Below are positions 142-40,731 of a DNA stretch of 42,784 nucleotides, in pieces. Every line of letters starts with the position of its first letter. Within the stretch, counting starts at the first letter, position 1. The notes under the pieces are model-generated. The model worked only from the letters and a program-made list of their open reading frames with translations. It made no database searches and was not told the DNA's origin. Position numbers and translations under genes: made by a program. This stretch comes from a virus: the IMG/VR virus record IMGVR_UViG_3300031416_000024, positions 1 to 42,784 of that record. One strand, 5' to 3'.

Positions 142-1275
142 ATGTCTCAAAATTCTCAGGTAAATGACAGATTACTAATGCAGGCTCAAAGCGAGTTAAC
201 GCATGAATTTGTTATTGATAACACGCCTCAGTATGTTGATAATAAATGTGGCAGAGTTTCTTATTATTCTGCTCGTAAGGCGCTAACATTAAATCCGAAC
301 GCCTTGATAAAAAACGCAATAGACTTTGATTCTTCAATTGTCGCCAGGCTTGTTTATAATCTTAAAAAAATTGGCGTCCAGTTTGAGATTGAAAAGCCCT
401 TCAGATTCAAGGTTGCCTACGGTCACATTAACCTTAAAATTGATGCCATTGCATCATCTGGCTTTCCAGATTTTCCGCAACAGAAAGTAATCATGCTTTT
501 TAATGTTGTTAGCGGAAAAGATTTCATTTCTTACAGCAACAGCCAATCCGTGCCGGAATGGATGGTTAATAACGCCCAGCTTCTTATGGCATATGGCGGC
601 ATAAAAAAAGCCGCATTATTTATTGTAAACAGAGCATCAGGGCAATCATTCGCGCAAGTGGTGGATATAGATTTCAACGCCGCTACAAGAATTGACGATC
701 TATCAAAATCATCAGTTTCTGAATATTCAATACCAGAAAGAATTGCTTCTGTTGAAGACATAACTGCCTCAAATGAAAAAGCTCTTAAGTGCTTGTCTTG
801 CCCTTACGTAAGTCAATGCGCCCTACCTGAGTCCACTATGCCAAACTGCTACAGTTGTGCATTTTATTCAATGCGTCCAGATGGTAAAGCTGTTTGTGTT
901 GCAAAAAACAATATGCCACTTGACGACAGAACAAGATTGAATTATGAAAACTGCGACAGGCATATTTATAATCCAGAAATGATTGATTCCTGGTCCGCTT
1001 TTATGGGCGAAGCTGTTCGTCAGGTTATAGGCCAGCATGATATAGTTGAATCAAGAACAGGTAGTATTTTTGCAAATAAATTAACTGGCGTTGAATTTGA
1101 AAATGTCATGCCTATTGAGAAAAAGGATTTAAATCAATACACCAGCTATGAAATTTATGGCGCTAAAGGTAAGGATTTGATAGGCGATTCGTCAATAAGT
1201 AAATTAAAGAAAACTTTCGGCGCTGAGATACAAGGAATTCACAATGACGTTTCAGGATCGAATTTTCCAGATTGA
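142..1275 (+). CDS. PD-(D/E)XK / Cas4-like nuclease with Fe-S type Cys motif and an extra Cys-rich C-terminal region
   Basis: The ORF track gives 130..1275. ATG at 142 follows a GAGG RBS, whereas 130 is TTG. The translation has IDAI...FNVVSGK (nuclease-like core) and CLSCPYVSQC (= CX2CX5C, as in Cas4/AddB Fe-S nucleases), then CYSC...C...C. It sits in the recombination operon. Confidence 0.5.
   Translation: MSQNSQVNDRLLMQAQSELTHEFVIDNTPQYVDNKCGRVSYYSARKALTLNPNALIKNAIDFDSSIVARLVYNLKKIGVQFEIEKPFRFKVAYGHINLKIDAIASSGFPDFPQQKVIMLFNVVSGKDFISYSNSQSVPEWMVNNAQLLMAYGGIKKAALFIVNRASGQSFAQVVDIDFNAATRIDDLSKSSVSEYSIPERIASVEDITASNEKALKCLSCPYVSQCALPESTMPNCYSCAFYSMRPDGKAVCVAKNNMPLDDRTRLNYENCDRHIYNPEMIDSWSAFMGEAVRQVIGQHDIVESRTGSIFANKLTGVEFENVMPIEKKDLNQYTSYEIYGAKGKDLIGDSSISKLKKTFGAEIQGIHNDVSGSNFPD
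657..665 (+). repeat. AGTGGTGGA-core motif copy 1
   Basis: gcgcaAGTGGTGGAtat; sense strand of the nuclease CDS (codons Q-V-V-D). Confidence 0.9.
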
Positions 1276-3228: not shown

Positions 3229-3236
3229 GGAAGATT

Positions 3237-4374: not shown

Positions 4375-4658
4375 GCATAATCGCAGTAATGAAATTATCA
4401 GAACTTCAGCAAAAGATAGTGAAATTTGCTGAGGATAAATTAGGCGCAGGTGGTGGAATATCCATTTCTCTTAACCCTCCTGGAATAGAATTCTCCAGCA
4501 AAGAAATGGTAAAGAAATTTATTGATTTTATAGCCTGGGATTACAACACTCACATTGTGTTTGATGCATTCCTCAGAGGAAAGATTACAGAAGCAAAGCA
4601 TGATAGAATAACGCATTCCGTTAGTGAGATGGTTAAAGTTTGCCATCCATTGAAATAA
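4371..4658 (+). CDS. Hypothetical protein
   Basis: ATGA start/stop overlap with the upstream CDS. Last gene of the + strand operon. Confidence 0.55.
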   Translation: MSIIAVMKLSELQQKIVKFAEDKLGAGGGISISLNPPGIEFSSKEMVKKFIDFIAWDYNTHIVFDAFLRGKITEAKHDRITHSVSEMVKVCHPLK

Positions 4659-6212: not shown

Positions 6213-9200
6213 TTAAACGTTAAATCCGCCCCTTCCTGATGGTGCAGCAAACATTGTGATAACACCGCCAGCAGTGTCGTTTGGGTTTGCCTGGTCGAAA
6301 TTGTTTGTAACTATGGATATCGTGCCAGCTGATCCAGCCGAAAAGCTGTGCTTAATCGTAACCCTACCAGAAGCATTTCCGGTAACTGATATATCCTTTC
6401 TTGCCTGCCTTCCATCGTCTGATGCTATTATCACTATCAGGCTTTTATTTCCTGCTTTAACATTAGCGCCATACTGAATGTCAGCCCACACATCCATATT
6501 AAAGCGAGGGTTTCCGTTATATGTAGTAGACCATGATTTGGCCCTGTCTACCCCATACTCAGACATGCCAACCTGAACGAAATCACCGATAATCTTATTT
6601 GCTTCCAGCGTACCAAGTATTACGCAGTTTTGATTTATGGTTACATTGTTAAGCACTCCTGATTGTGCCCTGATATCCCCAACGATAACCATCTGCCTAT
6701 TTACGCTGTCAAAGTAAACCCATCTTTCTAGGTTGTCCGGTGAGCTGATAGAGACGGCATCAGCCACAAAATCAACCACGCTTGACAGTCCTTGCTCTGC
6801 ATTTCCTGCGTTAACGTAAACTCCTGTTATGCGAGGCCTGCCGCCGTTTTTATCCACCACCCGCAATGATGCAAGCTCAGAAAGGCCATCTATATTTTCA
6901 TTTATTTCCTTTATATATTCAGTTTTAGGTAATGCGATATTAATCAAATCATCAAGGTCAGCAGAATCAAACTTTGTCAAAACCCTGACAGTAGTTATCT
7001 CTGATTTGCCAATAGTGTTAACAGACCTGACTCCGAACCAGTAATAAGAGTTAACTCTTAAATCAACCTTGTTTAGGACGTAAGCAAATCCAAGGTTGTA
7101 TGTCATATCCAAAACTTCCTGCTCAGTAGATCCAAAGAACCATTCATACTGTTCTCCAAGAGTCCTTAGCGGTGATAGGATTGGCTTTAATGTCGCTGTA
7201 AGGTTTCCGGTAGTCCAGCTTATGGAAGTTGGTTTTGGTGGCGCTGATACCAGGAAAACAGCCTCCGCCGTCTCTCCTGATTTCCCATCAGTGGAGATAG
7301 CCTTTACCTGGACGTTGTAAGTTCCAGCCTTATCAACATTTATATAATATTCGTTTTCTGAAATAACTACATTATAAACAATATTGTTATTTAGTTTTAT
7401 GATAATATTAAACCTTACGTTCCTTGCGGTTTGCGGAGAATTAAAGTAAACCCTCGCTTGTCCTTTTGGTGAATCTGGAGTTGACTCAATAGCCAGGCCT
7501 TCAGGAGCTGGAATTTTATCTCCATAGAGAGAATCAATCTCTGGGTCAAAAACAACCCCTTTATCTATAATTTCTGTTTTTTCAGGAACGTGCTCAATAG
7601 CATTTACAGAATAAGTCCTGTCGTCATTCTCCGTTATAGTTATGCATCGGAAAAGCTTGAATCCCAAATTATTAAAACTCATGCTCCAGACTGACATCCT
7701 AGAAACGGAATCAGGGCAAGTGGTGGAAATTGTCACCTTATTGAGGCTTTCATTTACTGAATCAACTTTAAACTCTTCAGGAATGCCCTGGTCATTTATC
7801 ATTGTTATCAGATATTCAACGCTGGAGCTGTTTTCAACCTGAACAGCCCTGTCGAGTTCAATAGTTTTTCTGTCTTCAGAAACAGACAATATCCTTCCGC
7901 CTATCTGAGATCCATAATAATCACTGTCAGCAACTTTTATGATATCCCCTGGTAAATGCTTAAGGCCAGCAATACCAGTTCTGAAGCTTACAGTTTTACT
8001 CTCTAAAAGCTCAGTCTCAAGAACGTAAAGCCCAAACCTTCTTGCCTGGCTTCTTGTGTCTGTTGCAAAGGCTTCAACTTTTTTTACGTTATATCCGTTA
8101 TCGACAATTGCAGAGTCGCTTTGCACATACTCAATAGCCTGTTCGTAATTATTTTCCTTATCGATAAACGTTACTTCTACAACGCTATGCCTGTCCTGAA
8201 GCTGAGAGCTTCCATAAATAAATTCCCCGTCAATTACGTTTGCATTTGTGTATAGCGCTTTTGGGTCTTTTTTAGAATCAATGGATACCGACAGGCTTTT
8301 ACCGTTGTAAAGTGGTATAGCTCTGAATACAGATAAAATGTCAGTTATCAAATCCCATGCTTTTTTCTGGGATGTTATATTGCAGTTGCAGACAAATCTT
8401 GGTTCAAGATTTCCCTTTCCGTCATCAACTAATTCATCACAAAATTGAGATGCTACATAAAGAGAGGACTCACTGACATCAATTTTTTTGTCCCCTAACC
8501 CGTACCGTGAATCTTTTATTAAGTCATAAACAACCCATGCTGGATTGTTGGTGAATGCAGATTTAAAAGAGCCATCCCAGAAGCCATTATAAACTCTTCT
8601 GACGGGATCGTAGTTTGAAGGAACCTTGACTATCATTCCATCTACAAGATAGTTTCTTTTTGGGATGCTTCCATTAAAGTTTTTTGAATCAAGCTTGATT
8701 CCACAATAGGCCGTGTAAGGCCATCTGTACTTTTGATTAATAACAATAGAGTATGAACGCCAGAAACTTTTGTTCTGTATTGCCTGCCAGTTCCCCGTCT
8801 CAGCGTCAGAAGTAACCCTTTCTACCTTTACGTCAAATGGAGGTTTTGGCAAATCCCATATTTCAGCCTGAAAATAAAACTCATTCCTTGATTTTTGGTT
8901 GTTAAATGATATATCGGATTTTTCAATCCAATCAGCAGATGACGATTCTTTCATGTATACTTTTAACTGCAATGACGTTTCTATTGTGTCTCCGTCATTG
9001 GTTACAAGATACAGGCCCTGGGAGTAAAGATTAACCCTCAGCATGTCTATTCTGCTATCTGTTATCGTTCTTATAATTGGCGACTCTTTTTTAACCTGAA
9101 CGTTAACTCCTATTTCTGATGCGCTCTGCGGGAATCCATTTAAATAATCCTGATCCGCAGTACCAACATTAGTTTCAATTGATACGCCTGATATATTAGT

Positions 9201-12598: not shown

Positions 12599-13381
12599 TC
12601 AATCCTCATTTAATAATTCAATTGCGCCAGAGATATTTAAATCTTTATGGTTACCACTTCTCCATATGGAATGAGTGTACTTTAAATAAAAACCCCTCAA
12701 AGGCTCAACCATAGAGAGCTTGCCAGGCAAGTGGTGGAAAATCATATTATTCCCAACATATACAGAAACGTGATTTGGAACTTTAGCTCCCAGAAGCGAA
12801 AATATTACATCCCCAGGGATCATATCATTGTGGTCTTTAACTTTATTAAATCCAAAATTTTCTATGTTATCCGTAAATGGAGACGTAGCGCCAGGCTCTT
12901 TATACCAACCCTCTATTCTGTATCCATCTGATGGAGAAAAATCAGGCAAATGCTTTCCTGCCAGTGCATAAAAATCCCTGAAAGAATCATAGCAGTCAAG
13001 ATATCCCTCAGAGAATTCTCTACCTTTTAATTTTCTCACTGGCTCCCACACTGACAGCTCAGTAACCTCACCTCTATGAGAGTGAAGAATCCACGGAATA
13101 TTATTCCTGTATTGTTGAATCCTGTCATTTGATGAAAGATGTTCGAGTCCTTTCTCTGTATGGCTATGGCAGACGGCAACTACTTTTCCTCTTACTGAGG
13201 CAGCTACATAATCAGCCTGGCTTATGCAAAAATTATCAGATGGAACGGGATGTGAATTATGGCAAGGTATGTAAAATTTTATTCCAGCCGATTCCACCAC
13301 TAGCCCGCACCTTTCTTCTTTGGTTGTTCCTGCTAAGTGTTTAATTATCTGTAGGGTTAATTCCCTTTCTAGCTTCATCAT
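12599..13381 (-). CDS. Tail tip assembly protein K-like (MPN/JAB plus NlpC/P60-like domains)
   Basis: JAMM-like CHSHT...SSND motif, C-terminal NlpC/P60-like region, and synteny after L. Confidence 0.8.
   Translation of the reverse strand: MMKLERELTLQIIKHLAGTTKEERCGLVVESAGIKFYIPCHNSHPVPSDNFCISQADYVAASVRGKVVAVCHSHTEKGLEHLSSNDRIQQYRNNIPWILHSHRGEVTELSVWEPVRKLKGREFSEGYLDCYDSFRDFYALAGKHLPDFSPSDGYRIEGWYKEPGATSPFTDNIENFGFNKVKDHNDMIPGDVIFSLLGAKVPNHVSVYVGNNMIFHHLPGKLSMVEPLRGFYLKYTHSIWRSGNHKDLNISGAIELLNED
12730..12738 (+). repeat. AGTGGTGGA-core motif copy 3
   Basis: aggcaAGTGGTGGAaaa; antisense to K (F-H-H-L frame). Confidence 0.9.
13293..13301 (-). repeat. AGTGGTGGA-core motif copy 4
   Basis: gggctAGTGGTGGAatc on the - strand; sense in K (L-V-V-E). 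Confidence 0.9.
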
Positions 13382-14883: not shown

Positions 14884-15080
14884 TTTCCTTCCTCATTTAA
14901 ATTCGGGCAAGTGGTGGATTTAACTTCCTCTTGCTGATTATTTTTAATTACGTGCTTTACTCTTTTTTGACCAAACTTTTCAAACGCACCAAGAAGCGCA
15001 TCCTCAAGCGTAGGGCATTGGTCGGTTATCCATATCGCCTCTTTTCCCTCCTTAAAGACTATCTTGTAAATGTTGTACAT
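14880..15080 (-). CDS. Hypothetical protein (insert between TMP and M)
   Basis: 66-aa ORF whose start abuts the stop of the 59-aa ORF. Confidence 0.55.
   Translation of the reverse strand: MYNIYKIVFKEGKEAIWITDQCPTLEDALLGAFEKFGQKRVKHVIKNNQQEEVKSTTCPNLNEEGK
14910..14918 (+). repeat. AGTGGTGGA-core motif copy 5
   Basis: gggcaAGTGGTGGAttt; antisense to the 66-aa ORF (S-T-T-C). Confidence 0.9.
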
Positions 15081-18953: not shown

Positions 18954-19331
18954 TTATTCAAAGAAAGATAGGCGAAAATCAATAATGTGCGGCGGGTTTT
19001 CGTCATTATCAACGCCAAGGTACGGCCCCACATCCTCAACTGACCTGACAAACATCACGCTAAATAGATTGCTCCACCTGTGACCTGTTTTGCCGCTTAA
19101 TTCTAGCAGCATATATCGTATTAAATCCACCTGATTAAGGTCTTTGCATACGATACTTACATCAAATATAACCTCTCTTGACGTAAATCCGTACCCGTCT
19201 ATCTCCTTGTTAACTATTTCGTCAGCTATTGCAAAAGCGCCAACGGGATAAGGAACTTTTTCAGGGGTCATATTCTGGTAAATGTCGCAGTTAAACTTAT
19301 CCTTAAAAACTGCTACTATAGCCTCACGCAT
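18954..19331 (-). CDS. Tail terminator-like protein (position of lambda U)
   Basis: 125-aa ORF immediately upstream of the tail tube gene. Assigned by synteny only. Confidence 0.45.
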   Translation of the reverse strand: MREAIVAVFKDKFNCDIYQNMTPEKVPYPVGAFAIADEIVNKEIDGYGFTSREVIFDVSIVCKDLNQVDLIRYMLLELSGKTGHRWSNLFSVMFVRSVEDVGPYLGVDNDENPPHIIDFRLSFFE

Positions 19332-19861: not shown

Positions 19862-19870
19862 TCCACCACT
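19862..19870 (-). repeat. AGTGGTGGA-core motif copy 7
   Basis: The - strand reads TAAGTGGTGGAATAAATG. The motif fills the 12-nt spacer between a stop and the next ATG. Confidence 0.9.
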
Positions 19871-20621: not shown

Positions 20622-20632
20622 TTTCACCACTC

Positions 20633-24119: not shown

Positions 24120-25939
24120 TATAATGATCCCATGTTATCAGGCATTTCAGGAACGGTGTCAGCTATTGTATGACGGATGATACGAGACACGCCAGTGAAA
24201 AGAGCGCTTGGGCCATCAATTTTATATTCCCTGCTGGACTTATCAGGAAAGATATTTCCGTTTCTGTCTCTGTTGGCGTTAACGTTACCCATCATCCAGG
24301 TGAAGGCCTCGTTTTCATCAACATACATTTTATTGCTGTAAACGGTTCCCTCAATATGTTTCATTGCTTCATTGAGGTTACGCACGTTTTGAGGCACTTC
24401 CACCACCTGCCATCCGTGCTTCTGGTTCATAGAAATGGCAAACTGCGTTGCGTGCCAGGGGTCATAAGCCATTTCCTGAAGATTGTCTTCACTCCCTTTT
24501 ACCCATTCAATTAAATCCCCCTTTATTGTTTCAATATCAATTGCATCACCGGAAGTAAGCTTTAGCCATCCGTAAGCGGCCCACCGCTCATAACGCTCTC
24601 GCATCTCATCGGAACAGGTATCAAGCCTTCCCTCTGGTAGCCAGAATTTAGAAAAGAATGCTAGACCGCCTTTATCTGTCCAGTAAGTTTTTACGGCTGC
24701 GCAAATATCTATTTTCTCTGCAAGGTCTACAGAAATAATATAAGGAAGCGTTGCCAGCAAATCGTGCTTTATTGTAGATGATTTTTTTAACTTTCCGTAT
24801 TTCTGCATATCCATCCATGAGAATGCACCATTTACGAAAATGTTTAAATGCTTGGTCTGGAAGTTATTTCTTGAAGATGGCTGTTCGAGCGCCTTCTTAG
24901 CCAGAACTTTCATATCCTGGATTGACTTAGAAACGCCAAGAGCTGGGTTTGCTTTAAACCACAAAGTTGGGTCGCGATAAACTTCATCTGTCTCCATGTC
25001 TTCTTCATCCATTGTGTACCAGATGAAAAAGAATGAATCAGTCTCTTCGCTCTGCTCGATTCTTTTATCAAGAATCTTCATTCCGTAATCTTTAAGCTCA
25101 ATGGCGATGCCATCCAGAATAACGCCAGCAGTTGAAATGACGAAAATTAAAGGCTGGTCGCGCGAGCCTGTTGCAGTTTCCATTACATCATAAACATCGC
25201 GAGTTTTGTGCGCGTGTATTTCATCGATTAATGCACAATGAACGTTTTTGCCGTCAAGAGAGTTAGCATCTGCTGAAACGTGCATAAATCGAGAATATGA
25301 AGATTCGCTAAAAATTGATTTATCTGTAGTCTTTAAATGCTGCTGAAGGTTGAGAGAGGCTTTTACCATTTGCGCGGCATCATCAAAAACAATCCTTGCC
25401 TGTTCTCGCGTTGTTGCTGCGCTGTAAACTTCCGCTCCGCCTTCGCCATCAAATTCTGTCATGTACAAACCAACAGCGGAGGCAATTGCAGATTTTGCGT
25501 TTTTACGTGCCAGGTAAGTTACGGCATGGCTGAATCTTCTTACATACTGAAGATTGCCGGAATCGTCGGTTAAATGCTCTCCTGTTATTTCGTCAAGGTG
25601 AGGCTTAACAAATCCAAAAACGTTAATAAGGATAAATACGTGAAAGTCCATCAAATCGATAGGCTTTCCGCGCCAGCGCTTTCCCTTTACGTGAACACAG
25701 AACTTTGTGACAAAATCAAGAACGTGCTGAGCGCGTGACACGGAGAATATAAAAGGCCGCTCTTCGCTTTCTGCTCTTTCCATATCATCAAGAAATCGCT
25801 CGCAAGCCTTAACCACAACCTTGCACGCAAGAATTTTACCCTCAACAACATCATAGGCATAATCGACACCATCCTGAACAACAGGATTTGAAATGGCGCG
25901 TCCATGCGCCCTGGCGAGCTGAGGCGGGTTAACTGTCAT
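24119..25939 (-). CDS. terL: Terminase large subunit
   Basis: 606 aa. ATPase-type segments (LARKNAKS, CALIDEIH) plus a C-terminal nuclease region. ATGA coupling to the small subunit. Confidence 0.9.
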   Translation of the reverse strand: MTVNPPQLARAHGRAISNPVVQDGVDYAYDVVEGKILACKVVVKACERFLDDMERAESEERPFIFSVSRAQHVLDFVTKFCVHVKGKRWRGKPIDLMDFHVFILINVFGFVKPHLDEITGEHLTDDSGNLQYVRRFSHAVTYLARKNAKSAIASAVGLYMTEFDGEGGAEVYSAATTREQARIVFDDAAQMVKASLNLQQHLKTTDKSIFSESSYSRFMHVSADANSLDGKNVHCALIDEIHAHKTRDVYDVMETATGSRDQPLIFVISTAGVILDGIAIELKDYGMKILDKRIEQSEETDSFFFIWYTMDEEDMETDEVYRDPTLWFKANPALGVSKSIQDMKVLAKKALEQPSSRNNFQTKHLNIFVNGAFSWMDMQKYGKLKKSSTIKHDLLATLPYIISVDLAEKIDICAAVKTYWTDKGGLAFFSKFWLPEGRLDTCSDEMRERYERWAAYGWLKLTSGDAIDIETIKGDLIEWVKGSEDNLQEMAYDPWHATQFAISMNQKHGWQVVEVPQNVRNLNEAMKHIEGTVYSNKMYVDENEAFTWMMGNVNANRDRNGNIFPDKSSREYKIDGPSALFTGVSRIIRHTIADTVPEMPDNMGSL

Positions 25940-27975: not shown

Positions 27976-27984
27976 AGTGGTGGA
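27976..27984 (+). repeat. AGTGGTGGA-core motif copy 10
   Basis: gcgcaAGTGGTGGAaaa; intergenic. Confidence 0.9.
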
Positions 27985-29814: not shown

Positions 29815-30401
29815 TATTCCACCACTTCCAGCAATTTGGCCGCAAGAACGGCAGAAACGAAAGCAAAAAACATCGTCGTCAGGAAAAGGCAAGATGATGT
29901 TTCGTTAGATTTCTTAAGCTGGGTTCTCAGATTAGATAGTTCAGATTTATGCCAATCACCCATTAGCTCATAATACTTTTCTTCAGCAGACTTCAAAGGA
30001 GATGGCTTTGATTCATTGTTGTTTAAATAAATAAAGCTTTCTTCTCCGTCAATTGTTGTCACTTCGATCTTCTCCGTTCCTTCACGCGTGATTATCGTAT
30101 GAGTATCAAACAGGCTTTGATTGTTATTTTTCCATGCTCTAAGAACTTCTCTTGCGAGGCTTCTCTTTTCCAGCTTCATTGGCCTGATGAATGAAATCTC
30201 AATAAACCTCAAAATATCATAAGGCTGAATTTTTCTTTTTGAATTGCTTATCATGCGCATACATACATGCCTATGCGATGCATCAAAGCAATTTTGGTTA
30301 ATCATCATTCTGTCGAAATATGATGTTTTTAGCGTTGGGCTGACTTGCGTATGGCTTTCTATTTCTTCATCACTATAGTGAATGAACTTTATATCTTTCA
30401 T
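29814..30401 (-). CDS. Hypothetical tail-anchored membrane protein
   Basis: 195 aa with a single C-terminal hydrophobic helix CLFLTTMFFAFVSAVLAAKLL. Confidence 0.55.
   Translation of the reverse strand: MKDIKFIHYSDEEIESHTQVSPTLKTSYFDRMMINQNCFDASHRHVCMRMISNSKRKIQPYDILRFIEISFIRPMKLEKRSLAREVLRAWKNNNQSLFDTHTIITREGTEKIEVTTIDGEESFIYLNNNESKPSPLKSAEEKYYELMGDWHKSELSNLRTQLKKSNETSSCLFLTTMFFAFVSAVLAAKLLEVVE
29818..29826 (-). repeat. AGTGGTGGA-core motif copy 11
   Basis: The - strand reads GAAGTGGTGGAATAATGGAAAAA at a stop/start junction. Confidence 0.9.
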
Positions 30402-31168: not shown

Positions 31169-31516
31169 TTACTCTGTAGCTGTTTTCCGGCGATGGCACG
31201 GAATGCAGAGGAGCTGAAGGTTAGAAAGTTCATCCGAACCTCCCTGGCTAACGGGCTTAATGTGATCGACTTCGACGCCAAAAGATACGATTCCATTTCT
31301 TTCACACTCTTCACATAATCCCATACAGCGATTGATGATGATTTGCCTTTTCTTTTTCCAGACTGAAGACTGATAAGGACGCCGCTCACCTTCTTTTGAT
31401 TGTTGGAACTTTCGCCAGCCTTCATTTTTGTGCTCCTCGCAATAACCGTTTGTTTTCTGGCTGGCCTTCTTGACGCACCCAGGAACCCTACAACTTGAAC
31501 CAGGCAATGATGGCAT
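31169..31516 (-). CDS. HNH endonuclease
   Basis: CxxC...DHIKPVSQGG...NLQLLCIPCHRRKT is the classical HNH/zinc-finger signature. Confidence 0.85.
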   Translation of the reverse strand: MPSLPGSSCRVPGCVKKASQKTNGYCEEHKNEGWRKFQQSKEGERRPYQSSVWKKKRQIIINRCMGLCEECERNGIVSFGVEVDHIKPVSQGGSDELSNLQLLCIPCHRRKTATE

Positions 31517-31794
31517 TATTGACTGCCTCTTAAGTGCTGAAAATCTACGCGAGCGTTTAGGCCGTTAAGGGCGCAAAGCTCAACAATCATATCGCTGGAA
31601 ATCATGCGCGGGTTTTCTTCGCTAAACCAGCAGCGTACTGTCTGAGGCTTAACGTTTAAAAGTGAGGCAATGCTTACTGAGGTCAGCCCAAGCTTTGAGC
31701 GCAATTCTTTAAGGATTTTCACCCTTGTTGCATAAGGAATTTCGTTCCTTTTGCGGTCATACTCTCCGACCAAATCCTGATTTTCCTGATTCAT
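31516..31794 (-). CDS. Helix-turn-helix DNA-binding protein
   Basis: LGLTSVSIASLLNVKPQTVRCWF is an HTH. First gene after the promoter at 31826-31854. Overlaps the HNH gene by 1 nt. Confidence 0.6.
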   Translation of the reverse strand: MNQENQDLVGEYDRKRNEIPYATRVKILKELRSKLGLTSVSIASLLNVKPQTVRCWFSEENPRMISSDMIVELCALNGLNARVDFQHLRGSQ

Positions 31795-31825
31795 TTTTTC
31801 TTCCGTTTGTTATCTTGTTGTCAAC

Positions 31826-31854
31826 ACTATGGGCTAAAAAAAACCCGCTGTCAA
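31826..31854 (-). promoter_or_regulatory. Putative sigma70 promoter (TTGACA-17-CATAGT) with a direct repeat of TAGTGTTGACA
   Basis: The 11-nt tgtcaacacta occurs at 31819-31829 and 31849-31859. One copy carries the -35 and the other covers the start region. Confidence 0.55.
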
Positions 31855-31873
31855 CACTAAGCTGAAGCGGGGG
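31836..31873 (-). terminator. Possible terminator after the lysis cassette (6-bp stem, long loop, T8)
   Basis: On the - strand: CCCGCT-16 nt-AGCGGG followed by TTTTTTTT. The loop contains the -35 hexamer. Confidence 0.4.
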
Positions 31874-31874
31874 C

Positions 31875-31883
31875 AGTGGTGGA
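31875..31883 (+). repeat. AGTGGTGGA-core motif copy 12
   Basis: ggggcAGTGGTGGAaag; intergenic. Confidence 0.9.
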
Positions 31884-31941
31884 AAGTTACCAAATCGAAG
31901 CAATGAGGAAGTTAAGTTATCAAGCGTTTTGAGAATATCAG

Positions 31942-32820: not shown

Positions 32821-33085
32821 CCCTTTCTCCATTTTCTAGCTTTTTCTGTTTAATAAATCTGGCAATAAAGGCCAAAACCCATAAAACCAGCGCTACATAT
32901 TTCAGATAATCGTGTGGAATTTCCGCCTTAAACTCTGCCGGAAGAATGGCCCAAGCCTCAAATGCACGTTGAGGCGCGAACTCAAGAGCGCCTAAAATTG
33001 CAATTCCCGCAAGGTTGAGCCAGGTAGAGTGAAGTTTCCACCACTTGCGCCAGTATGAAACTGGCTCAATTCTTTTTTTCATCAT
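32810..33085 (-). CDS. Putative holin (two TMDs)
   Basis: 91 aa with two hydrophobic helices and a charged C-terminus, immediately upstream of the endolysin. Confidence 0.6.
   Translation of the reverse strand: MMKKRIEPVSYWRKWWKLHSTWLNLAGIAILGALEFAPQRAFEAWAILPAEFKAEIPHDYLKYVALVLWVLAFIARFIKQKKLENGERDEK
33037..33045 (-). repeat. AGTGGTGGA-core motif copy 13
   Basis: gcgcaAGTGGTGGAaac on the - strand; sense in the holin (K-W-W-K). Confidence 0.9.
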
Positions 33086-34123: not shown

Positions 34124-34328
34124 CTGTAGAATCCTCTTCAGAAAAACCAATCTTATCTAAAAAGTCAGAAACCTTTAATACTACAAATTCCTCAGTTGGG
34201 CCTGAAATTGAAATTGATGGGGTAAGCGTTTCACCATTTGAGTAGCAAGTTGCAAACCAGTTACCCCCTACATTAGAAGTCTGAATTTTTTTATCAGACT
34301 TTATTTTTCTCAGCTCTGCCACTTTCAT
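34116..34328 (-). CDS. Hypothetical protein
   Basis: 70-aa ORF tightly coupled to its neighbours. Confidence 0.5.
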   Translation of the reverse strand: MKVAELRKIKSDKKIQTSNVGGNWFATCYSNGETLTPSISISGPTEEFVVLKVSDFLDKIGFSEEDSTDA

Positions 34329-34513
34329 TATTTTTTCTTCCCGCTAATACGTTCGATTGCATTTTGCGTACTTGCTAACAAACCCTTTTGCTCGTCAATC
34401 ATTTCTGGCGGGTATCCTGAATCTGAAAGAACCTGAATTTTCATCTTCAGTTCGCTTTCTGAATCCTTGAGATTACGCAATCTCATTTTTTGAGTAGAAG
34501 TCAGTTTTTCCAT
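34328..34513 (-). CDS. Hypothetical protein
   Basis: 61-aa ORF (MEKLTST...) whose start overlaps the upstream stop as TAATG. Confidence 0.5.
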   Translation of the reverse strand: MEKLTSTQKMRLRNLKDSESELKMKIQVLSDSGYPPEMIDEQKGLLASTQNAIERISGKKK

Positions 34514-34749
34514 TATTCCACCACTTGCCCTTTCTCTCTTACTGTTCCGTTCATTTTATCCTGAGCGATCAAATCCAAGACTTTTTGCTTTGCCTCTTTT
34601 TCGTCGGTTCCCCAGGCGCGATAATGCACATCTTTGTATGTTGTCGTTGCGATGAAAATCCAGTATGTGTCCCAATACTCCTGGAAGTTTTTGGGCGCTT
34701 CGCTCCGCTTAACATCAAAGATTAATTCTGGCTCAATTGTCTCCGGCAT
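34513..34749 (-). CDS. Hypothetical protein
   Basis: 78-aa ORF. Confidence 0.5.
   Translation of the reverse strand: MPETIEPELIFDVKRSEAPKNFQEYWDTYWIFIATTTYKDVHYRAWGTDEKEAKQKVLDLIAQDKMNGTVREKGQVVE
34517..34525 (-). repeat. AGTGGTGGA-core motif copy 14
   Basis: The - strand reads GGGCAAGTGGTGGAATAATGGAAAAA at a stop/start junction. Confidence 0.9.
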
Positions 34750-35371
34750 TTTCTAAAACCCCGCAAGGCGTGATTGATAAAACCTGAACAGGCTTACGAT
34801 AGTCTGCAACAGGGCGCTTTACATCAAGATTGTAGAGGAATCGCATGAAGTTATCAGGAATATCGCCTGGTTGAATCAGATTAGGAATAGTCCTTAAAAC
34901 CTCAGGCTTAGGCTCAAACTCTCCGCTACCTGTGAATCCCTCAGTCTGGCCGCCAACGTAATTACAAAAAAGCTCCGTAACTTCCTTGGCGCTCATAGCC
35001 ATAGAGTACTCAAAAACCTGTAGAGCGCCGTTCCCGTACTCCATTCCAGCTACGGATCGGAAAACAACCATCATACGATTATTTGCACAAGGATAGCTTG
35101 CAGTCGCTTCGCATGTGATTGTCTCACGGTGCGGAGCGTAAAATTCACCGCGCTTGCTTTTGCGTTTAACATCTTCAAGACCAGATGAGAAAGTTAACGC
35201 TTCTGGTTTTTTTGACTCCAGCGAATCAATGATGGAAGCCCCAGCAGAATTCACTAAACGTTCAAGCGCGGTTTTGTAGATGTGTCCGGTTGCCGAAGAA
35301 ATGACAAAACGAACAACCTCAACATCAAGCCCGTTATCTTCTGAAAACTTATCGATATCGAATTCAACCAT
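34733..35371 (-). CDS. Hypothetical protein
   Basis: 212-aa ORF with a GAGGA RBS. First gene after the promoter at 35404-35432. Confidence 0.6.
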   Translation of the reverse strand: MVEFDIDKFSEDNGLDVEVVRFVISSATGHIYKTALERLVNSAGASIIDSLESKKPEALTFSSGLEDVKRKSKRGEFYAPHRETITCEATASYPCANNRMMVVFRSVAGMEYGNGALQVFEYSMAMSAKEVTELFCNYVGGQTEGFTGSGEFEPKPEVLRTIPNLIQPGDIPDNFMRFLYNLDVKRPVADYRKPVQVLSITPCGVLENAGDN

Positions 35372-35403
35372 TTTTCTAAATCCTCATTTTTAGTAACAGG
35401 CTA

Positions 35404-35432
35404 AGAATGGGCCAAATCTTACCGATTGTCAA
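35404..35432 (-). promoter_or_regulatory. Putative sigma70 promoter (TTGACA-17-CATTCT)
   Basis: The reverse complement reads ACGTTGACA-N17-CATTCT, about 30 nt upstream of the ATG at 35371. Confidence 0.55.
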
Positions 35433-35438
35433 CGTTTT

Positions 35439-36032
35439 ACCCCTCTCCCCCTCTCCCCCTGTATTTGAATTATTTGAGTTTTTTCGTAAGTTAATGATTT
35501 TTATGATTTTTCATTTACTATTTGAAAGTCGCCTACATCTCTATAACTCAATACATACATACAGAGAGGGAGGGTATATAAATACACCCCTCCCCCTCTC
35601 CCTACGTAAGAGGCTAGACAGAGGTTATAAATATAAATAAATAAATATATAAATATATAATAGTATAGTTATCAGGGGGTTAGAGGGGGTATTTGAATGC
35701 AGACACCCTCCTTTTATTGCAATTAAAATCAATGTGTATGATTTATATAGGGAAATTATTTCAGCACAAAAAACCTGAAAAGCGGAATTTTGCAAAAACT
35801 GAGCAAATCAGGCGGCAAGTGGTGGAATTACCTATCAATTAATCGGGCAACACTACAATAAAACCTATCGTAAACCTCAACACTCTCTCCTGTGGTTTAC
35901 AGCACCGACAGGGAGAGAGAGGGAGGGGTGTTTATATTTTTTATTAGCTAGGATGGGAGAGAGAGGGGGTGTGTTTAGTCGGTTCTTGCCAAATACATCA
36001 GGAGAGAGGGGTGTAATTTATACACCCTCTCT
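35439..36032. repeat. Iteron field: ~10 copies of a GGAGAGAGGGGTGT-like polypurine unit in both orientations around a 48-bp ~96% A+T tract
   Basis: G-rich copies on the + strand at 35564, 35675/35685, 35911, 35955 and 36001. C-rich (inverted) copies at 35439-35460, 35584-35603, 35703-35711, 35881-35890 and 36022-36032. AT tract at 35625-35672. No convincing ORF. Confidence 0.8.
35818..35826 (+). repeat. AGTGGTGGA-core motif copy 15
   Basis: cggcaAGTGGTGGAatt; inside the non-coding iteron region. Confidence 0.9.
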
Positions 36033-36059
36033 ATGCGCGAAGTTATAAGGACAGGTAAT

Positions 36060-36082
36060 AAAAAACCCGCACTAGGCGGGTT
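36060..36082 (-). terminator. Rho-independent terminator; 23-nt cassette identical to 5557-5579
   Basis: On the - strand: AACCCGC-CTAGT-GCGGGTT followed by TTTTTTATT. Confidence 0.8.
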
Positions 36083-36103
36083 ATCTTATAATAGCTGGGC
36101 TTC

Positions 36104-36412
36104 TTATTTTGGCTGATAGCCCATTTCCTGGAGAAGGTCGAGACTGTCTTTTACGGAATCAAGGCTTCTTGACTTAATCCTGCTGTGATTTGCTTTCGAT
36201 ACAACCCGTGATACTTGTTTGTGATTTGGCCTCTGCCGGAAAGCCTCAGCGCCGTGAATGATAGTCGTGCTTTCTGTGTTTTCTACACAAGAAACCAGAT
36301 ACCCACTGCAAAATTTACCGTTCACGTTTTTGATTAAACTGTCAGATACGTTGACGCGGTTAATCGTTACGAGCATGCTTCCGTTGTAAAAGCTGTTGAT
36401 GAGTTTAGCCAT
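36104..36412 (-). CDS. Hypothetical protein
   Basis: 102-aa ORF; last gene before the terminator and iteron region. Confidence 0.55.
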   Translation of the reverse strand: MAKLINSFYNGSMLVTINRVNVSDSLIKNVNGKFCSGYLVSCVENTESTTIIHGAEAFRQRPNHKQVSRVVSKANHSRIKSRSLDSVKDSLDLLQEMGYQPK

Positions 36413-36883: not shown

Positions 36884-36894
36884 TTGTAACCTCT

Positions 36895-37368: not shown

Positions 37369-37398
37369 AAGATAGCACTAAAACTTACAACTTGTCAA
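37369..37398 (-). promoter_or_regulatory. Putative sigma70 promoter (GTGTTGACA-18-TATCTT) embedded in the 3' end of the methyltransferase-like CDS
   Basis: The reverse complement reads AGTGTTGACA-N18-TATCTT upstream of the ATG at 37341. Confidence 0.5.
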
Positions 37399-38089
37399 CA
37401 CTGTATTTTTCAAAAACCGCCCTTGAGAATCCTCTGGGCGTTGCACTTCTGATGTTTTTTGTTTTAAGGGAGTCACCGCCTAGCTGGCTGTATTGTTTGC
37501 TTTTTCCAGCCTCATCATCTGGCACGGTCACAGGTCGTTTCTCTGGCAGCTCAAAACCCCCGCCGCACCAAAGGCCAGTTTTTTTCGTGTAGGCGTCACT
37601 GTCGTTTATCCATTCGCTGTAAAGTGGATGCTTCTCCTTTCCTTCAAGATAGCCTCCGTATTCGAAAGGGTGAAAATATTGCGGCTTCCCGAATAGCTCA
37701 TGGTTTGCAAAAATGCTCACGGGATTTTCAAAAAACCACGGACAACCGCAAATAAGACCTATCATTCTGCACTGCTCGGCAACCATAACAGATTTGGCCC
37801 AAACTAGAGCATCGTTTTTAATTTTGCTTTCAAAGTGCCTTGTGCCGGAAACGGCAACATCAGTACAGGGCGGAAACCCTGCAACAAAAACAATTTCAAA
37901 CTTATCCATGAATTGCCGGATAAGGCCTGAACACTCAACTATCGTTCCGGCCAGCTTAATATACCCTTTTTCTTTTCTGGTTTTACCATGCTGAGGGTCT
38001 ACAAGTATCGCCTCAAATCCAGCATCAACCCAATCAGCGCAAAACAACCCTGTGTAATCACACAGGGATAAGATGGCCTTCTTTTTCAC
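37385..38089 (-). CDS. Small DNA (cytosine-5)-methyltransferase-like protein without an obvious target-recognition domain
   Basis: Motif I-like SLCDYTG, motif IV-like GFPPCTDVAVSG (catalytic PC) and motif VI-like FFENPV. Only 234 aa. Confidence 0.5.
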   Translation of the reverse strand: MKKKAILSLCDYTGLFCADWVDAGFEAILVDPQHGKTRKEKGYIKLAGTIVECSGLIRQFMDKFEIVFVAGFPPCTDVAVSGTRHFESKIKNDALVWAKSVMVAEQCRMIGLICGCPWFFENPVSIFANHELFGKPQYFHPFEYGGYLEGKEKHPLYSEWINDSDAYTKKTGLWCGGGFELPEKRPVTVPDDEAGKSKQYSQLGGDSLKTKNIRSATPRGFSRAVFEKYSVDKL

Positions 38090-40731
38090 TTTTCCACCGC
38101 CTTCTTAATGAATGATTCTCCAGCCGTAGTATCACAGAAATCGGCCCACGTCTGATAGGTGAAGTAAACCATAGTTCCTCTTCCGCGCTGGCCTGGTTTT
38201 GATCGGTATTCAAACTCCTTGATTTTCTGCTCGCTCTTAAGTGTCTGTATAATCAATCTGCGATTTTTAACATCCCCTCCAAGTCGGGTATTCTCAGAAA
38301 TAGCCTGTAACGTAGCGCCTTTAGGCTGTGAGGATATGAAATCATTAACTTCCCTCATTACGCTCTGTTCTTTGGAGTCGGTAATATGGTTTCTTGCCAT
38401 TTCTTCGGATTTCTCGGCGCACCAGCTAACAAACTGGTAAGCGTATAAAAGGCTGTCTTGTTTGATTGATGTAGAATATGGCCTTTCGGCAAGCTCGAAA
38501 ACCATAGCCGTTCTTAAAGTGTTTTCTGTCAGTCGCCCCCATATGCCCGCGTATTTTCCGGCCTCTCTCTTCCTTGCTGTTTCCACTGACTTTATGTAGA
38601 TTTCAAGTTCTTTGGAATCTGCATCTATCGTCATTGCGGTTACATTTTCCTGGCCTTGGACGTACATTTGCGGCGTGTAAATTGATTTAACTCTGTTAAT
38701 CCAGACTCCGACACTTTCAGGTAAAGTGGTATTCATGGGAATCTTACCTTCCCTGTTTCCGCTTCCTATGGAGTTAAGAACCTGGAATCTTGAAAGAAGC
38801 CCGTCTATGATATCGCTTCCGCTGAACGCTTCATAAATCTTTCCTGGGGTAGTCAGCCCATAAATGCTGGGGCAGATTCCGCCAAGGTCCACAACTGCGT
38901 TATTTTTGGCGTCAGCCTTGCTTGCAGTAACGTTGGTTTTTTCTCCATATGAAGTATAGCCATCAAGGATTGCGCGGCGAATCATTTTCTGTGAGACGTT
39001 GGCTCTTTCATGGAAGATATTGGCAAAGAGTTCGCCTATCTCATCCAACATAAAATATCTTCCCTTGTCTTTCACAAGGTCGTTGTAGAATCCCTTATCT
39101 GATACGATATCTTTTGGCCCGATACGGTTGTGATCATAAGCGCACTCTAGCACTTTTTTCGCCATTTTAACTGTCTGACTTTTACCGACAGATGTATCGG
39201 CTATAACCATAAAGTAAAGATTCGTCGTTAGTGTTCCGTAAGAAAATCTTCCGGCAAGGAGAGCGCCAAGAACAGAAAGCGTAAAAGACGCTGCAATCTC
39301 AGGAACGTAAGTAGAGCTGTTTTGCGCCTGCCAACGGAATAGGTCGCAAAGCACTTGCCTGTTTCCCAATCTTTCGAACCAGGATTTAAACTCAGACTCA
39401 TCTGGCATTCCGGCGTTTGGGTCTTTATTTCTGCCCTTTTCAAAAAGTGACTGAAGCATTTTCATCGATTTGGAATTGCTTGAATTCATAATTGACACGG
39501 CCTCTATTCTTGATTCGTCAACGTAGTTGATGTTATTAGTTTTTTTGGCGTGAAGCATTTCTTGCTCTATGATTTCTGGGAGGCAAGAGAAATCAATAAT
39601 CATCACTTCCGGCATTGCTTCAAAATCAACGTGCATAGGTAGAGGAACTTCGTTTTGCACAAAAAGGCAGTTTTTTGATTCATCAACAAAATCAGCAACC
39701 TTTGTTGGCTGCATTTTTACATGGTCTGAAGGGTCAACATAAACCCCTTGCTTTCCTGTGTTTTCAAAACCAAACTCCATTGCAAGCTCAAAAAAGCTCG
39801 CTATCGTCCTTCCGCCAGACCTGTATTTAAAAGATCGCCAGCGTCTTTCACATAACTTGTAGCTAAACTTCCCGCCTAAATGCTGGCGGAGCCAATCAAA
39901 ATAAAGTTGTTTTCCCATGCCGCCAGGTAAAAGTGACTGCAACCCCATTCCGACTTTTAAGCGCTCGTCGTCATTCAGGGAATGGAAATTAAGATAATCC
40001 AAAGCTTCTTTAATCTGGTCTAAGTCATCACTATCAACATCGCGAGCGGTTACGGTAAATCTTTCTGGGGAAAATCGCTTATCGTCAAATCCATCACGAA
40101 TCAGATTTTCAATGGATCGGGGCAGTGGTGGAAAATCCTTCGACAAAAGCAACTCTTCACTTTCTTCCGTCCATTGGTACTTGTTGCCGCTTTTATGGTT
40201 TGACGGGGATAAAAGGATGTAGCCGTTAAATTTAAAATCAACACCAGGGTAGTTTGACCCAAGTCCAGAGGGAGCGGATTTAAAATCACCAGGAGCTTTG
40301 AAAATTAAATGAACGCCTCCGCCTCCGGTTTCTGCGGAAATAGTAGATGTTATTTTTTCCTTGAATGTAGTCTCAAAATCATCAAGGGCCTCAAAGCCGT
40401 TTACTTCAACTCCTTTTACAACGTGGCGATCAATATCAATGACGAAAAGACCGTTTCCTGAACAGTCTAATGCAATATTTGCTTTTGGATATTGCGTCCA
40501 CCAGTAATCTACTTTCTTTAAATCTGAGGTCGAATCAAGACGGCCTTTCGGCACTATCCATTTCCCCTCACTTCCAGCTATAGGGTGTTTCCCAGGGTTA
40601 TTTTGTGAGCCAGGGCCTCCGCAATTTTTATCATTGCAGGCGCACTTTCCTGTATTCTCATCAATCCACCACAAAGGGAAAATTTTGAGTCCAGCCCCTG
40701 CGTACTTCAGAGCCTTCTCTTTATTTTCCAT
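38086..40731 (-). CDS. Bifunctional primase-polymerase fused to a P-loop (DUF3987/D5-like) helicase domain
   Basis: N-terminus ALKYAGAGLKIFPLWW...GKHP with DIDRH acidic motif (prim-pol). Walker A DTSVGKSQ and Walker B MLDEIGE in the C-terminal half. Confidence 0.8.
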   Translation of the reverse strand: MENKEKALKYAGAGLKIFPLWWIDENTGKCACNDKNCGGPGSQNNPGKHPIAGSEGKWIVPKGRLDSTSDLKKVDYWWTQYPKANIALDCSGNGLFVIDIDRHVVKGVEVNGFEALDDFETTFKEKITSTISAETGGGGVHLIFKAPGDFKSAPSGLGSNYPGVDFKFNGYILLSPSNHKSGNKYQWTEESEELLLSKDFPPLPRSIENLIRDGFDDKRFSPERFTVTARDVDSDDLDQIKEALDYLNFHSLNDDERLKVGMGLQSLLPGGMGKQLYFDWLRQHLGGKFSYKLCERRWRSFKYRSGGRTIASFFELAMEFGFENTGKQGVYVDPSDHVKMQPTKVADFVDESKNCLFVQNEVPLPMHVDFEAMPEVMIIDFSCLPEIIEQEMLHAKKTNNINYVDESRIEAVSIMNSSNSKSMKMLQSLFEKGRNKDPNAGMPDESEFKSWFERLGNRQVLCDLFRWQAQNSSTYVPEIAASFTLSVLGALLAGRFSYGTLTTNLYFMVIADTSVGKSQTVKMAKKVLECAYDHNRIGPKDIVSDKGFYNDLVKDKGRYFMLDEIGELFANIFHERANVSQKMIRRAILDGYTSYGEKTNVTASKADAKNNAVVDLGGICPSIYGLTTPGKIYEAFSGSDIIDGLLSRFQVLNSIGSGNREGKIPMNTTLPESVGVWINRVKSIYTPQMYVQGQENVTAMTIDADSKELEIYIKSVETARKREAGKYAGIWGRLTENTLRTAMVFELAERPYSTSIKQDSLLYAYQFVSWCAEKSEEMARNHITDSKEQSVMREVNDFISSQPKGATLQAISENTRLGGDVKNRRLIIQTLKSEQKIKEFEYRSKPGQRGRGTMVYFTYQTWADFCDTTAGESFIKKAVEK
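40124..40132 (+). repeat. AGTGGTGGA-core motif copy 16
   Basis: ggggcAGTGGTGGAaaa; antisense to the primase (F-P-P-L frame). Confidence 0.9.

Follow-up and report, generated by a model that had tools for sequence, protein, structure and literature searches.

The phage genome and the repeated word

The stretch of viral DNA analysed here, in the following called the window, comprises 42,784 nt (positions 1 to 42,784 of IMG/VR record IMGVR_UViG_3300031416_000024) and is a metagenomic contig in which the 9-mer AGTGGTGGA recurs 16 times, within genes as well as between them. In ENA, the contig is filed under ERZ27247383 as k141_327404, with a length of 42,798 bp. As judged from its sequence, the phage is a new member of the lytic, cos-type siphophages called 'Carrot-like' or Candidatus Rivulusviridae, and the repeated word is a cis-acting DNA signal which is specific to this family and is kept by selection on the DNA itself. 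According to PMC9119093, which also gives public SRA runs of these phages, the 'Carrot-like cluster' consists of siphophages whose genomes have cohesive ends and are 10-15% lower in G+C than the host; Ca. Rivulusviridae is the name proposed for them (PMC11845039). The first and last 127 nt of the window (1-127 and 42658-42784) are identical, so the window represents a circular assembly and a complete genome with 42,657 bp of unique sequence. Its nearest phages are the Serratia phages Bigdog, Carrot, Stoker and Rovert, the Klebsiella phages KLB5, KLB24, KLB28 and KLB29, and the Dickeya phage Sucellus, all at about 50% protein identity and with almost no alignable DNA. The family comparisons reported below cover six genomes, namely the window and the five complete relatives Bigdog, Rovert, Sucellus, KLB5 and KLB29.

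The window encodes a packaging, head and tail module with HK97-type small and large terminase subunits, portal, protease and capsid proteins and a lambda-like tail (gpM/L/K/I/J-like), as well as a lysis module consisting of a holin-like protein and a lysozyme. Near the presumed cos site, a gene for a small XRE-type helix-turn-helix (HTH) protein (31516-31794, - strand), which is kept in all six genomes, lies directly upstream of that for an HNH endonuclease of the terminase-associated type (31169-31516, - strand; 52% identity to the HNH proteins of Bigdog and KLB29). The replication and recombination module contains a protein with Pfam matches to PrimPol, PriCT_2 and DUF3987 (SF3 helicase) at 38086-40731 on the - strand, an AAA_24 (Sak4-like) protein, a DUF669 protein, a DnaQ/PolB-exo-like protein and, at 130-2944 on the + strand, a Cas4-domain exonuclease (130-1275) together with an SF2 helicase (1244-2944). 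No integrase was found among the window open reading frames (ORFs) scanned or in the annotations of the relatives, and the window contains neither recognizable tRNA genes nor matches to Rfam or known RNA families.

Copies of the word in the window

A model which had inspected the letters without any database search (the sequence-only reading) had listed 16 exact copies of AGTGGTGGA, and all of them were recovered at the positions and in the orientations given; the + strand has 11 and the - strand 5, a split which within the window alone is not significant (P=0.21). Dinucleotide-preserving shuffles of the window yield a mean of 0.13 copies (maximum 2), and a third-order Markov model predicts 0.15, corresponding to a z-score of about 41 for the 16 observed; AGTGGTGGA and its extensions are the most over-represented oligomers of the window at k = 8-10. 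The codon shuffle that had been proposed as a possible refutation speaks for the motif as well, since synonymous permutation within genes leaves 5.06 +/- 0.89 copies (maximum 8) as compared with 16, and the survivors are essentially the intergenic and boundary copies, which are untouched by the shuffle. Chance or coding bias can be effectively excluded as the source of the motif. The reported partition into 12 copies within coding sequences (7 antisense, 5 sense) and four intergenic or boundary copies was reproduced, and so were the peptides encoded at the copies (S-T-T, F-H-H-L, F-P-P-L, x-V-V-D/E and K-W-W-K). Taken together, the mixed orientations and the peptides show that the copies occupy all three frames of both orientations.

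The copies on the + strand, which form the main series, begin with gcgcaAGTGGTGGAt at 657-665, in sense orientation within the Cas4-like exonuclease gene and with homologous copies in KLB5 and Bigdog. The gpJ-like tail tip gene contains the copy at 7719-7727 in antisense orientation, so that S-T-T-C-P is encoded there; homologous copies are present in KLB5 and, approximately, in Rovert, a one-mismatch relic is left in Bigdog, and the other genomes encode unrelated peptides at this site. Further antisense copies are located at 12730-12738 in the gpK-like NlpC/P60 tail gene (encoding F-H-H-L-P), at 18008-18016 in ORF 17780-18175 (S-T-T), a region variable among the relatives, at 20451-20459 in ORF 20205-20630 (S-T-T), with a KLB5 copy about 25 nt off in aligned coordinates, at 24069-24077 about 45 nt into the start of the portal gene, with homologous copies in Sucellus and Bigdog, at 31875-31883 in the small ORF 31757-31903 (F-P-P-L), and at 40124-40132 in the PrimPol-helicase gene ((V/I/F)-P-P-L-P). 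The copies gggcaAGTGGTGGAt at 14910-14918 and ggcgcaAGTGGTGGAa at 27976-27984 are intergenic, and the one at 35818-35826 lies inside the largest non-coding region.

Two members of the minority series on the - strand are in sense orientation within genes, one at 13293-13301 in the gpK-like gene (L-V-V-E) and one at 33037-33045 in a DUF7940 holin-like gene (Y-W-R-K-W-W-K), the latter with exact homologous copies in Bigdog, KLB5 and Rovert. The other three stand at gene junctions before an ATG: 19862-19870 in a Shine-Dalgarno-like position 4 nt upstream of the ATG of gene 19324-19857, 29818-29826 in a similar position (…GGAataATG), and 34517-34525 4 nt before the ATG of gene 34328-34513. Similar junction copies occur in Bigdog, Rovert and KLB5; over the family, sense-strand copies 2-9 nt upstream of an ATG (…GTGGTGGAataATG) account for 8/36 of the minority-strand copies vs 0/58 on the other strand. 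Copies at gene junctions apparently have a second use as a Shine-Dalgarno-like element or ribosome-binding site.

Anatomy of the word

The consensus derived from 79 exact 9-mer copies pooled from the six genomes reads 5'-T-Y-S-G-S-G-C-A-AGTGGTGGA-A-3', and the motif sequence written out from 5' to 3' is 5'-TTCGGGCAAGTGGTGGAAT-3'. Its 5' side consists of about 8 nt which are G+C-rich and show graded conservation; on the 3' side, a single A is conserved throughout the family and nothing beyond it. Of the flanks described earlier, the GGGCA/GCGCA consensus on the 5' side is therefore real and extends over about 8 nt, but the A/T-rich 3' side is a property of this genome only. A single-mismatch census of the 10-mer gave 73 exact copies vs 0.41 expected. 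Variants at core positions 2-9 occur at background frequency only, and an excess of variants is confined to position 1 (A>G/C) and position 10 (A>T). As core mismatches do not exceed the background, the strict core is the contiguous 8-mer GTGGTGGA, which is recognized in an all-or-none manner; such a core fits enzymatic or single-strand recognition better than the graded binding of a transcription factor.

This census also helps to sort the one-mismatch copies put forward before, those at 4449 (+), 6853 (-), 24399 (-) and 40665 (-) being present, but not equally convincing, and AGTGGTGAA at 20623 being no site, as its mismatch falls into the core. The variant GGTGGTGGA at 4449-4457 on the + strand has a good flank (ggcgcaG...) and carries the A>G exchange at position 1 that is enriched family-wide; without it, the + series would have a single gap of 7 kb, which it breaks up into stretches of 3.8 and 3.3 kb. 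The same variant at 24399-24407 on the minority strand lies at the 3' end of the large terminase gene, where KLB5 has an exact copy at the same aligned position. The third GGTGGTGGA variant, at 6853-6861 (-), has a weak flank and is an uncertain member of the minority-strand series, and TGTGGTGGA at 40665-40673 (-) has a poor flank and is probably not functional.

Several structural likenesses were considered and rejected. The hairpin AGTGGT-GGA-ACCACT is formed in a few copies only and is not general, the consensus lacks the four G tracts of a G-quadruplex, and the RfaH ops element (GGCGGTAGnnTG) matches in only 8/12 positions, with the key T missing and on the wrong strand.

Specificity for the phage family

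In each of the five relatives, AGTGGTGGA is the top or a near-top over-represented word (z-scores of 21-36), with 15 copies in Bigdog, 14 in KLB29, 12 each in Rovert and KLB5 and 10 in Sucellus. The word with its full flank (e.g. attcgcgcaaGTGGTGGAa) was also found in the metagenome or IMG/VR fragments L330, L353, L354 and L355, which encode PrimPol homologues at 51-70% identity. By contrast with the family members, 80 IMG/VR loci selected for terminase homologues (L250-L329; 30-52% identity, 1.1 Mb) contain 49 copies of the core GTGGTGGA, or about 1 per 23 kb, which is near chance; these loci look like enteric prophages, as their G+C content is 49-57% and real Chi sites are abundant in them. 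The word with its flank was not found in phages with distant PrimPol homologues, and Pseudoalteromonas phage H40/1 has no such word despite the same type of replication module. The core GTGGTGGA does recur at a fixed offset in many distant PrimPol homologues, where it lacks the flank and reflects the coding of a conserved G-G-G-G motif.

Wider searches gave no sign of the signal elsewhere. Among the matches listed in a genome-collection scan for the 14-mer GGCAAGTGGTGGAA, only scattered single matches in unrelated taxa were seen, which is weak evidence. Its matches in viral contigs were mostly attributable to chance, and the contigs with 3-4 copies (L160, L135, L235 and L132) have no protein homology to the window, their copies being repeated coding motifs. 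A single-protein PrimPol search of viral contigs returned no matches, and alignments were used instead. A full-text literature search with the 9-mer returned primers and unrelated sequences only, and the papers on the family (PMC9119093, PMC11845039) as well as the BUCT805 paper make no mention of the motif.

Two further words that stood out in the oligomer statistics, TGCGGCTG in L330 and L354 and CCTGCTGG in KLB29 (L128), were rejected as dispersed signals, being local Q-rich coding repeats. Their arrays lie on the antisense strand of a long DUF669-type gene (L330:8132-8909, L354:4934-5705, L128:27743-28745) and illustrate that tandem glutamine-rich coding repeats can mimic dispersed motifs in such statistics.

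Conservation of sites and selection on the DNA

Sites were transferred between the genomes through protein alignments, and copies do occur at homologous positions in the relatives, as the sequence-only reading had proposed to check. Copies at homologous codons are found in the PrimPol gene of 5/6 genomes, in the gpK-like and the holin-like genes of 4 each, and at the portal start and in the gpJ-like and Cas4-exonuclease genes of 3 each; in DNA alignments, an island of identity coincides exactly with the motif between diverged flanks. The gpK-like gene is particularly instructive, because four genomes (including Bigdog, Rovert and KLB5) share the codons TTC CAC CAC TTG CC, whereas the catalytic H-H is kept by other codons where the site is missing (CTT CAT CAT CAG in Sucellus, ATT CAC CAT ATG in KLB29). 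In the PrimPol gene, the T before CCA CCA CT is kept while the encoded amino acid varies between V, I and F, and KLB5 has lost the site via a P>E change. In the gpJ-like and Cas4-exonuclease genes, S-T-T-C-P and A-Q-V-V-D/E are present with the site and unrelated residues without it.

This codon-level comparison indicates that the DNA word dictates the protein sequence, not the reverse. Together with the codon shuffle, it strongly supports the previous proposal that the selected unit is nucleic acid rather than peptide, and that a promoter or ribosome-binding site is not its general role. As copies are also present in window-specific accessory DNA, with the spacing kept, sites must be gained as well as inherited. 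A 10-nt word that is preserved intact in genomes whose surrounding proteins have diverged to about 50% identity, and that overrides protein sequence, is among the strongest cis-acting phage signals visible. It provides a diagnostic signature of the family in metagenomes and represents a constraint to be respected in recoding or engineering these phages.

Strand polarity and spacing

For the analysis of polarity, all genomes were oriented with the structural genes on '+', so that the favoured motif strand is the opposite one (the + strand of the window). Over the six genomes, 54 copies of the 9-mer lie opposite to the structural-gene strand vs 25 on it (P=0.0015), and the 8-mer is biased in the same direction (58:36, P=0.03). 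In the oppositely transcribed replication block, 8/10 copies keep the absolute strand and are there sense instead of antisense (Fisher P=0.04), which is moderate evidence only because several of these copies are homologous. The polarity follows the chromosome axis, i.e. the direction of replication, packaging or end-processing, and not transcription, which argues against roles at the RNA level or as promoters. The minority-strand copies have a mean flank score of 4.8, compared with 5.7 for majority-strand copies and 2.6 for random positions. Opposed copies are only 29-34 bp apart in Bigdog and Sucellus; a general pairing of opposite-strand copies was rejected, since the minority copies of the window are about 900 nt from the nearest majority copy, as the spacing of about 3.6 kb alone predicts.

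Including the variant at 4449, the gaps on the favoured strand of the window are 4306, 3943, 3899, 3907, 3618, 2443, 3098, 2180, 5011, 3270, 3792 and 3317 bp, with a mean interval of about 3.6 kb (gaps spanning the window ends are to be shortened by 127 bp). Their coefficient of variation (CV) is 0.21, whereas randomly placed sites give 0.89, and such evenness was not reached once in 20,000 random trials (P<5e-5). The favoured-strand series of the relatives have CV values of 0.25 in KLB29 (P=1e-4), 0.33 in KLB5 (0.002), 0.36 in Sucellus (0.004), 0.48 in Rovert (0.03) and 0.64 in Bigdog (0.09). The series of Bigdog contains one gap of 10.8 kb, located in a tailspike region with a 57-nt repeat that has apparently been exchanged recently. 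The minority-strand series is also evener than chance in the window, Sucellus and KLB29, and the evenness is less pronounced when the two strands are pooled, which indicates a separate series on each strand. Even spacing of this kind is a signature of selection for coverage, each site serving a few kb and redundant neighbours being dropped.

The exact 57-nt repeat of Bigdog (L124) occurs at 19374-19430 (+), 20206-20262 (-) and 20576-20632 (+), around the tailspike genes gp34-gp36, and may represent a recombination or exchange cassette.

A second, shorter word, TGCCGGA, is over-represented and strand-polar in the window phage only, with 19 copies on the + strand and 6 on the - strand as compared with expectations of about 3.9 (Markov) and 5.9 (codon shuffle); the relatives have 5-12 copies without bias. 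Its + strand copies include those at 551, 1522, 5618, 10662, 12419, 15481, 18473, 21264, 23360, 25555, 26017, 32936, 36234, 37843, 37914, 41093 and 41130. The word shares the absolute strand of the main motif whether the gene around it runs one way or the other, and its spacing shows no significant evenness. It could be the Chi site of the host, or it could be tied to the methyltransferase found only in the window, as it contains CCGG.

A priming signal as the favoured function

The word follows the phage family across differing hosts, and its reader should therefore be a conserved phage function. We infer that this is a conserved phage-encoded enzyme acting strand-specifically along the whole chromosome, for which the PrimPol-helicase, the Cas4 exonuclease with the SF2 helicase, the HNH and VRR-NUC-like nucleases, the terminase and the small HTH protein would be candidates, as they are conserved in all members. 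The terminase was rejected as the linked function because the 80 loci with homologues of its large subunit (30-52% identity) lack the word.

Reasoning by analogy with known primases, we tentatively favour the possibility that the motif is a template-recognition (priming, 'ssi-like') signal of the phage PrimPol-PriCT_2-SF3 helicase, without claiming that this is the probable outcome. A Prim-Pol + PriCT_2 + DUF3987 protein is encoded in all motif-bearing genomes; its homologues in the relatives are 34-52% identical, and their N-terminal 330 residues align with dense conservation. This co-occurrence is not exclusive evidence, since many other genes are also family-specific. A model is provided by pRN1 ORF904, which combines PrimPol, a helix-bundle domain and an SF3 helicase in the same architecture as the window protein. 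The pRN1 enzyme strictly requires the sequence GTG, which is not copied, and starts immediately 5' of it to make an 8-nt primer (PMC2034472). The core of the motif contains GTGGTG, and its strict 3' element with about 8 nt of weaker conservation on the 5' side has the layout of a primase template, which is consistent with priming but not specific to it. RepB' of RSF1010 primes at dedicated ssi sites (ssiA/ssiB) on each strand (PMC8567376), and the motif sites are likewise dedicated on each strand. The recognition sites of T7 gp4 provide a further comparison (PMC2910064).

In mechanistic terms, the primase would recognize the invariant GTGGTGGA(A) in a single-stranded template and copy the adjoining G+C-rich 5' flank of about 8 nt into its primer. 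As chance provides an 8-mer only about once in 65 kb of each strand, so specific a primase would start only at sites maintained by the phage. Such a dependence on self-supplied sites would call for an even series on each strand, with no favoured-strand gap much above 5 kb in the window, and would explain why homologous positions persist over about 50% protein divergence and why newly acquired DNA gains sites. The more densely occupied strand could be the one whose copying is discontinuous during a rolling-circle phase with mainly unidirectional replication.

The position of one copy is also counted in support of a priming role. The largest non-coding region of the window (35371-36104) contains an A+T-rich block (TATATATTTATATATTTATTTATTTATATTTATAA) flanked by elements of the CCCCTCTC / GGGGGAGGGGG type as well as TTGACA boxes, and is a candidate for the replication origin or an early-promoter region. 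Homologous gaps are present in Bigdog (L124:37988-38443), KLB29 (L128:34928-35475), two further relatives (L126:32324-32910 and L127:35190-35639) and Sucellus (L125), which has GTATATATG iterons at the same place, and a copy of the favoured series stands at the same edge of this region in 6/6 genomes.

Several points weigh against assigning the motif to priming. The link to the PrimPol-helicase is purely inferential, and to our knowledge no phage primase with a dispersed recognition site of at least 8 nt has been found, the known sites having 3-5 nt. No comparable word was detected in H40/1 or in other phages with distantly related PrimPol-helicase modules, and the sequence searches yielded no PrimPol relative of solved structure against which the helix-bundle analogy could be checked. 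The base just 5' of the core is mostly A; with the geometry of pRN1, primers would start with a pyrimidine, which is unusual. Moreover, if the motif strand were the template and the majority series belonged to lagging-strand synthesis, the forks would run head-on into late transcription. Finally, positions are inherited among the relatives, and the evenness results of the six genomes are not fully independent. If the copies nevertheless turned out to be priming sites, the phages would possess a primase-helicase with an unusually long, genome-supplied specificity.

Alternative readers of the signal

Nick sites represent a serious competitor, even if a somewhat doubtful one. According to this proposal, a phage nuclease (the HNH or VRR-NUC-like enzyme or another) would introduce a single-strand cut at each copy or beside it, either in mature DNA or in DNA undergoing replication, and evenly spaced nicks could act as swivels releasing twist in packaging or ejection. 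There are precedents: phage tf has a strict 9-mer (TACTRTGMC) with 14 copies in 46 kb, which are located within genes and at similar positions in related phages, and phiKMV-like phages are nicked in the non-coding strand (PMC3517423). The motif matches these systems in copy number, strictness, family specificity, positional conservation and bias to the non-coding strand; the family encodes several conserved nucleases, with the HNH protein beside the presumed cos as a candidate nickase, and the 5' flank GCGCA-AG even resembles the T5 consensus R/GCGCRGG (PMC3517423), although this may be chance. However, the three known systems use one strand only, whereas about one third of the copies of the motif (28-36 of 94) lie on the other strand, most of them with the flank consensus, and the closely opposed copies of Bigdog and Sucellus likewise fit poorly. 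The positions in tf are clustered and not evenly spaced (PMC3517423). The HNH protein is of the usual terminase-associated type, and phages with homologous terminases lack the motif. Should nicks be mapped to the copies, this would be the first nick system with regularly spaced sites on both strands, and it might show what phage nicks are for. Note that priming and nicking are not mutually exclusive, because unsealed junctions between primed fragments would appear as nicks.

It is less likely that the word acts in the manner of Chi, i.e. that a processive helicase-nuclease reads it as single-stranded DNA in one orientation and thereby has its degrading activity switched off or redirected. The likelier reader here would be the Cas4 exonuclease of the phage acting with its SF2 helicase, for which the word would be a 'self' mark, rather than host RecBCD, and the result would be spared or recombinogenic phage DNA, e.g. 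at rolling-circle tails or cos-cut ends. The core has the length of Chi with 8 contiguous invariant nt and shares TGGTGG with it, its polarity is absolute and its kb-scale spacing is of the coverage type, and the family encodes a recombination module with Sak4-like AAA_24, DUF669, Cas4 exonuclease, helicase and VRR-NUC-like nuclease. Most members also lack the Chi of their hosts: five family genomes contain 0-2 copies of it, and KLB29 contains 18 (9 per strand, without flank consensus), the lineage of KLB29 having apparently taken up host Chi on top of the family motif. Against this reading, the motif differs from the enteric Chi sequence 5'-GCTGGTGG-3' (PMC13181404) and possesses about 8 nt of conserved 5' flank, which Chi does not. 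In phages with homologous packaging modules, Chi is oriented the other way round from the motif (252 vs 66), and H40/1 has the same Cas4/helicase/Sak4 module but no word. We know of no phage-encoded nuclease that recognizes Chi. If the word did prove to be Chi-like, it would be the first phage-owned Chi analogue. The Chi counts themselves come from the 80 terminase-homologue loci (L250-L329), which carry 318 copies in 1.1 Mb, 252 of them on the strand of the terminase gene vs 66 on the other.

The broader notion of a sequence-addressed phage transaction, be it a primase-helicase bound to an 8-nt word every 3-5 kb per strand, with many 'ssi' sites in place of promiscuous priming, or a phage-encoded Chi-like 'self' word, has a real chance of being correct, though not an even one. 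If true in either version, the mechanism would be one not yet described in a phage and would enable self DNA to be distinguished from that of the host.

Rather improbable is the binding of the conserved small XRE-type HTH protein to double-stranded copies of the motif, as a putative stoperator-like polar roadblock or silencer which would block, e.g., leftward (early or antisense) transcription or wrongly directed forks. The gene keeps its position upstream of the HNH gene in 6/6 genomes, the putative recognition helix (QTVRxW) is the best conserved part of the protein, and the protein matches PHROG repressor and regulator families. A precedent is provided by the stoperators of L5, reportedly described by Brown et al. 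in 1997, which are dispersed asymmetric 13-16 bp sites bound by the phage repressor. However, the family is lytic, the orientation of the copies is not tied to local transcription, and 12/16 copies in the window are intragenic. Besides, recognition of 8 contiguous bases in an all-or-none manner, with no near-cognate sites, is atypical for HTH operators, the core is invariant among genomes whose HTH proteins share only 27-38% identity, and even spacing has no obvious rationale in a silencer.

A modification target of the methyltransferase-like protein encoded at 37385-38089, or of another base-modifying function, is very improbable. A match to phrog_757 ('DNA methyltransferase') is encoded beside the PrimPol gene and the complement of the motif contains CCACC, but the gene has no homologue in the five motif-bearing relatives, which rules out this protein as the reader, the family shares no modification genes, and modification targets are not normally enriched or evenly spaced.

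An origin as a word of the host (its Chi or a DNA uptake sequence) accumulated by host adaptation can hardly be upheld. The letters TGGTGG are indeed common to the motif and to enteric and Haemophilus Chi, but the word and its flank are identical across Serratia, Dickeya and Klebsiella phages with a G+C content 10-15% below that of their hosts, there is no enrichment in the 1.1 Mb around terminase homologues where real Chi is abundant, KLB29 carries genuine Chi besides the word, and the polarity is opposite to that of Chi in the phages with homologous terminases. The uptake variant is further at odds with the strand bias (54:25, P=0.0015) and with a distribution that follows the phage family and not the host; Serratia, Klebsiella and Dickeya are not known as users of uptake sequences, and the resemblance to the Haemophilus uptake sequence (AAGTG…GGT followed by A/T) is superficial. 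The function of the word is directly testable, because growable members of the family are at hand (Serratia phages Carrot and Bigdog, Klebsiella phages KLB5 and KLB29).

Comparison with known signals

The motif resembles several known kinds of signals, but matches none of them in all defining features. The nick words of tf/LUZ24-like phages, phiKMV-like phages and T5 are strict asymmetric sequences of 9-19 nt, present in about 4-14 copies per genome, lineage-specific, located in coding DNA and of unknown purpose (PMC3517423); they occupy one strand and are unevenly spaced, whereas the word described here uses both strands (about 2:1), each with an even series. Chi sites of the RecBCD/AddAB type are similar with respect to the 8-nt core, the shared TGGTGG, the implied orientation dependence and a frequency of one per few kb, but the motif differs at positions that matter for enteric Chi and is conserved with the phage lineage instead of the host. 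The stoperators of Cluster A mycobacteriophages, which are bound by a small phage HTH protein (gp71 in L5), comprise dozens of asymmetric sites of about 13 nt in temperate phages; most of them are intergenic, they are oriented with transcription, and mismatches are tolerated. In contrast, the present sites belong to lytic phages, are mostly intragenic, and combine an absolute polarity with an all-or-none core. Finally, known primase words are either 3-5 nt long or structured 40-nt hairpins at a single origin, whereas the word found here is dispersed, linear and 8-10 nt long and in general forms no hairpin; no primase signal described so far is a linear 8- to 10-nt word that recurs regularly along a whole genome of 42 kb.

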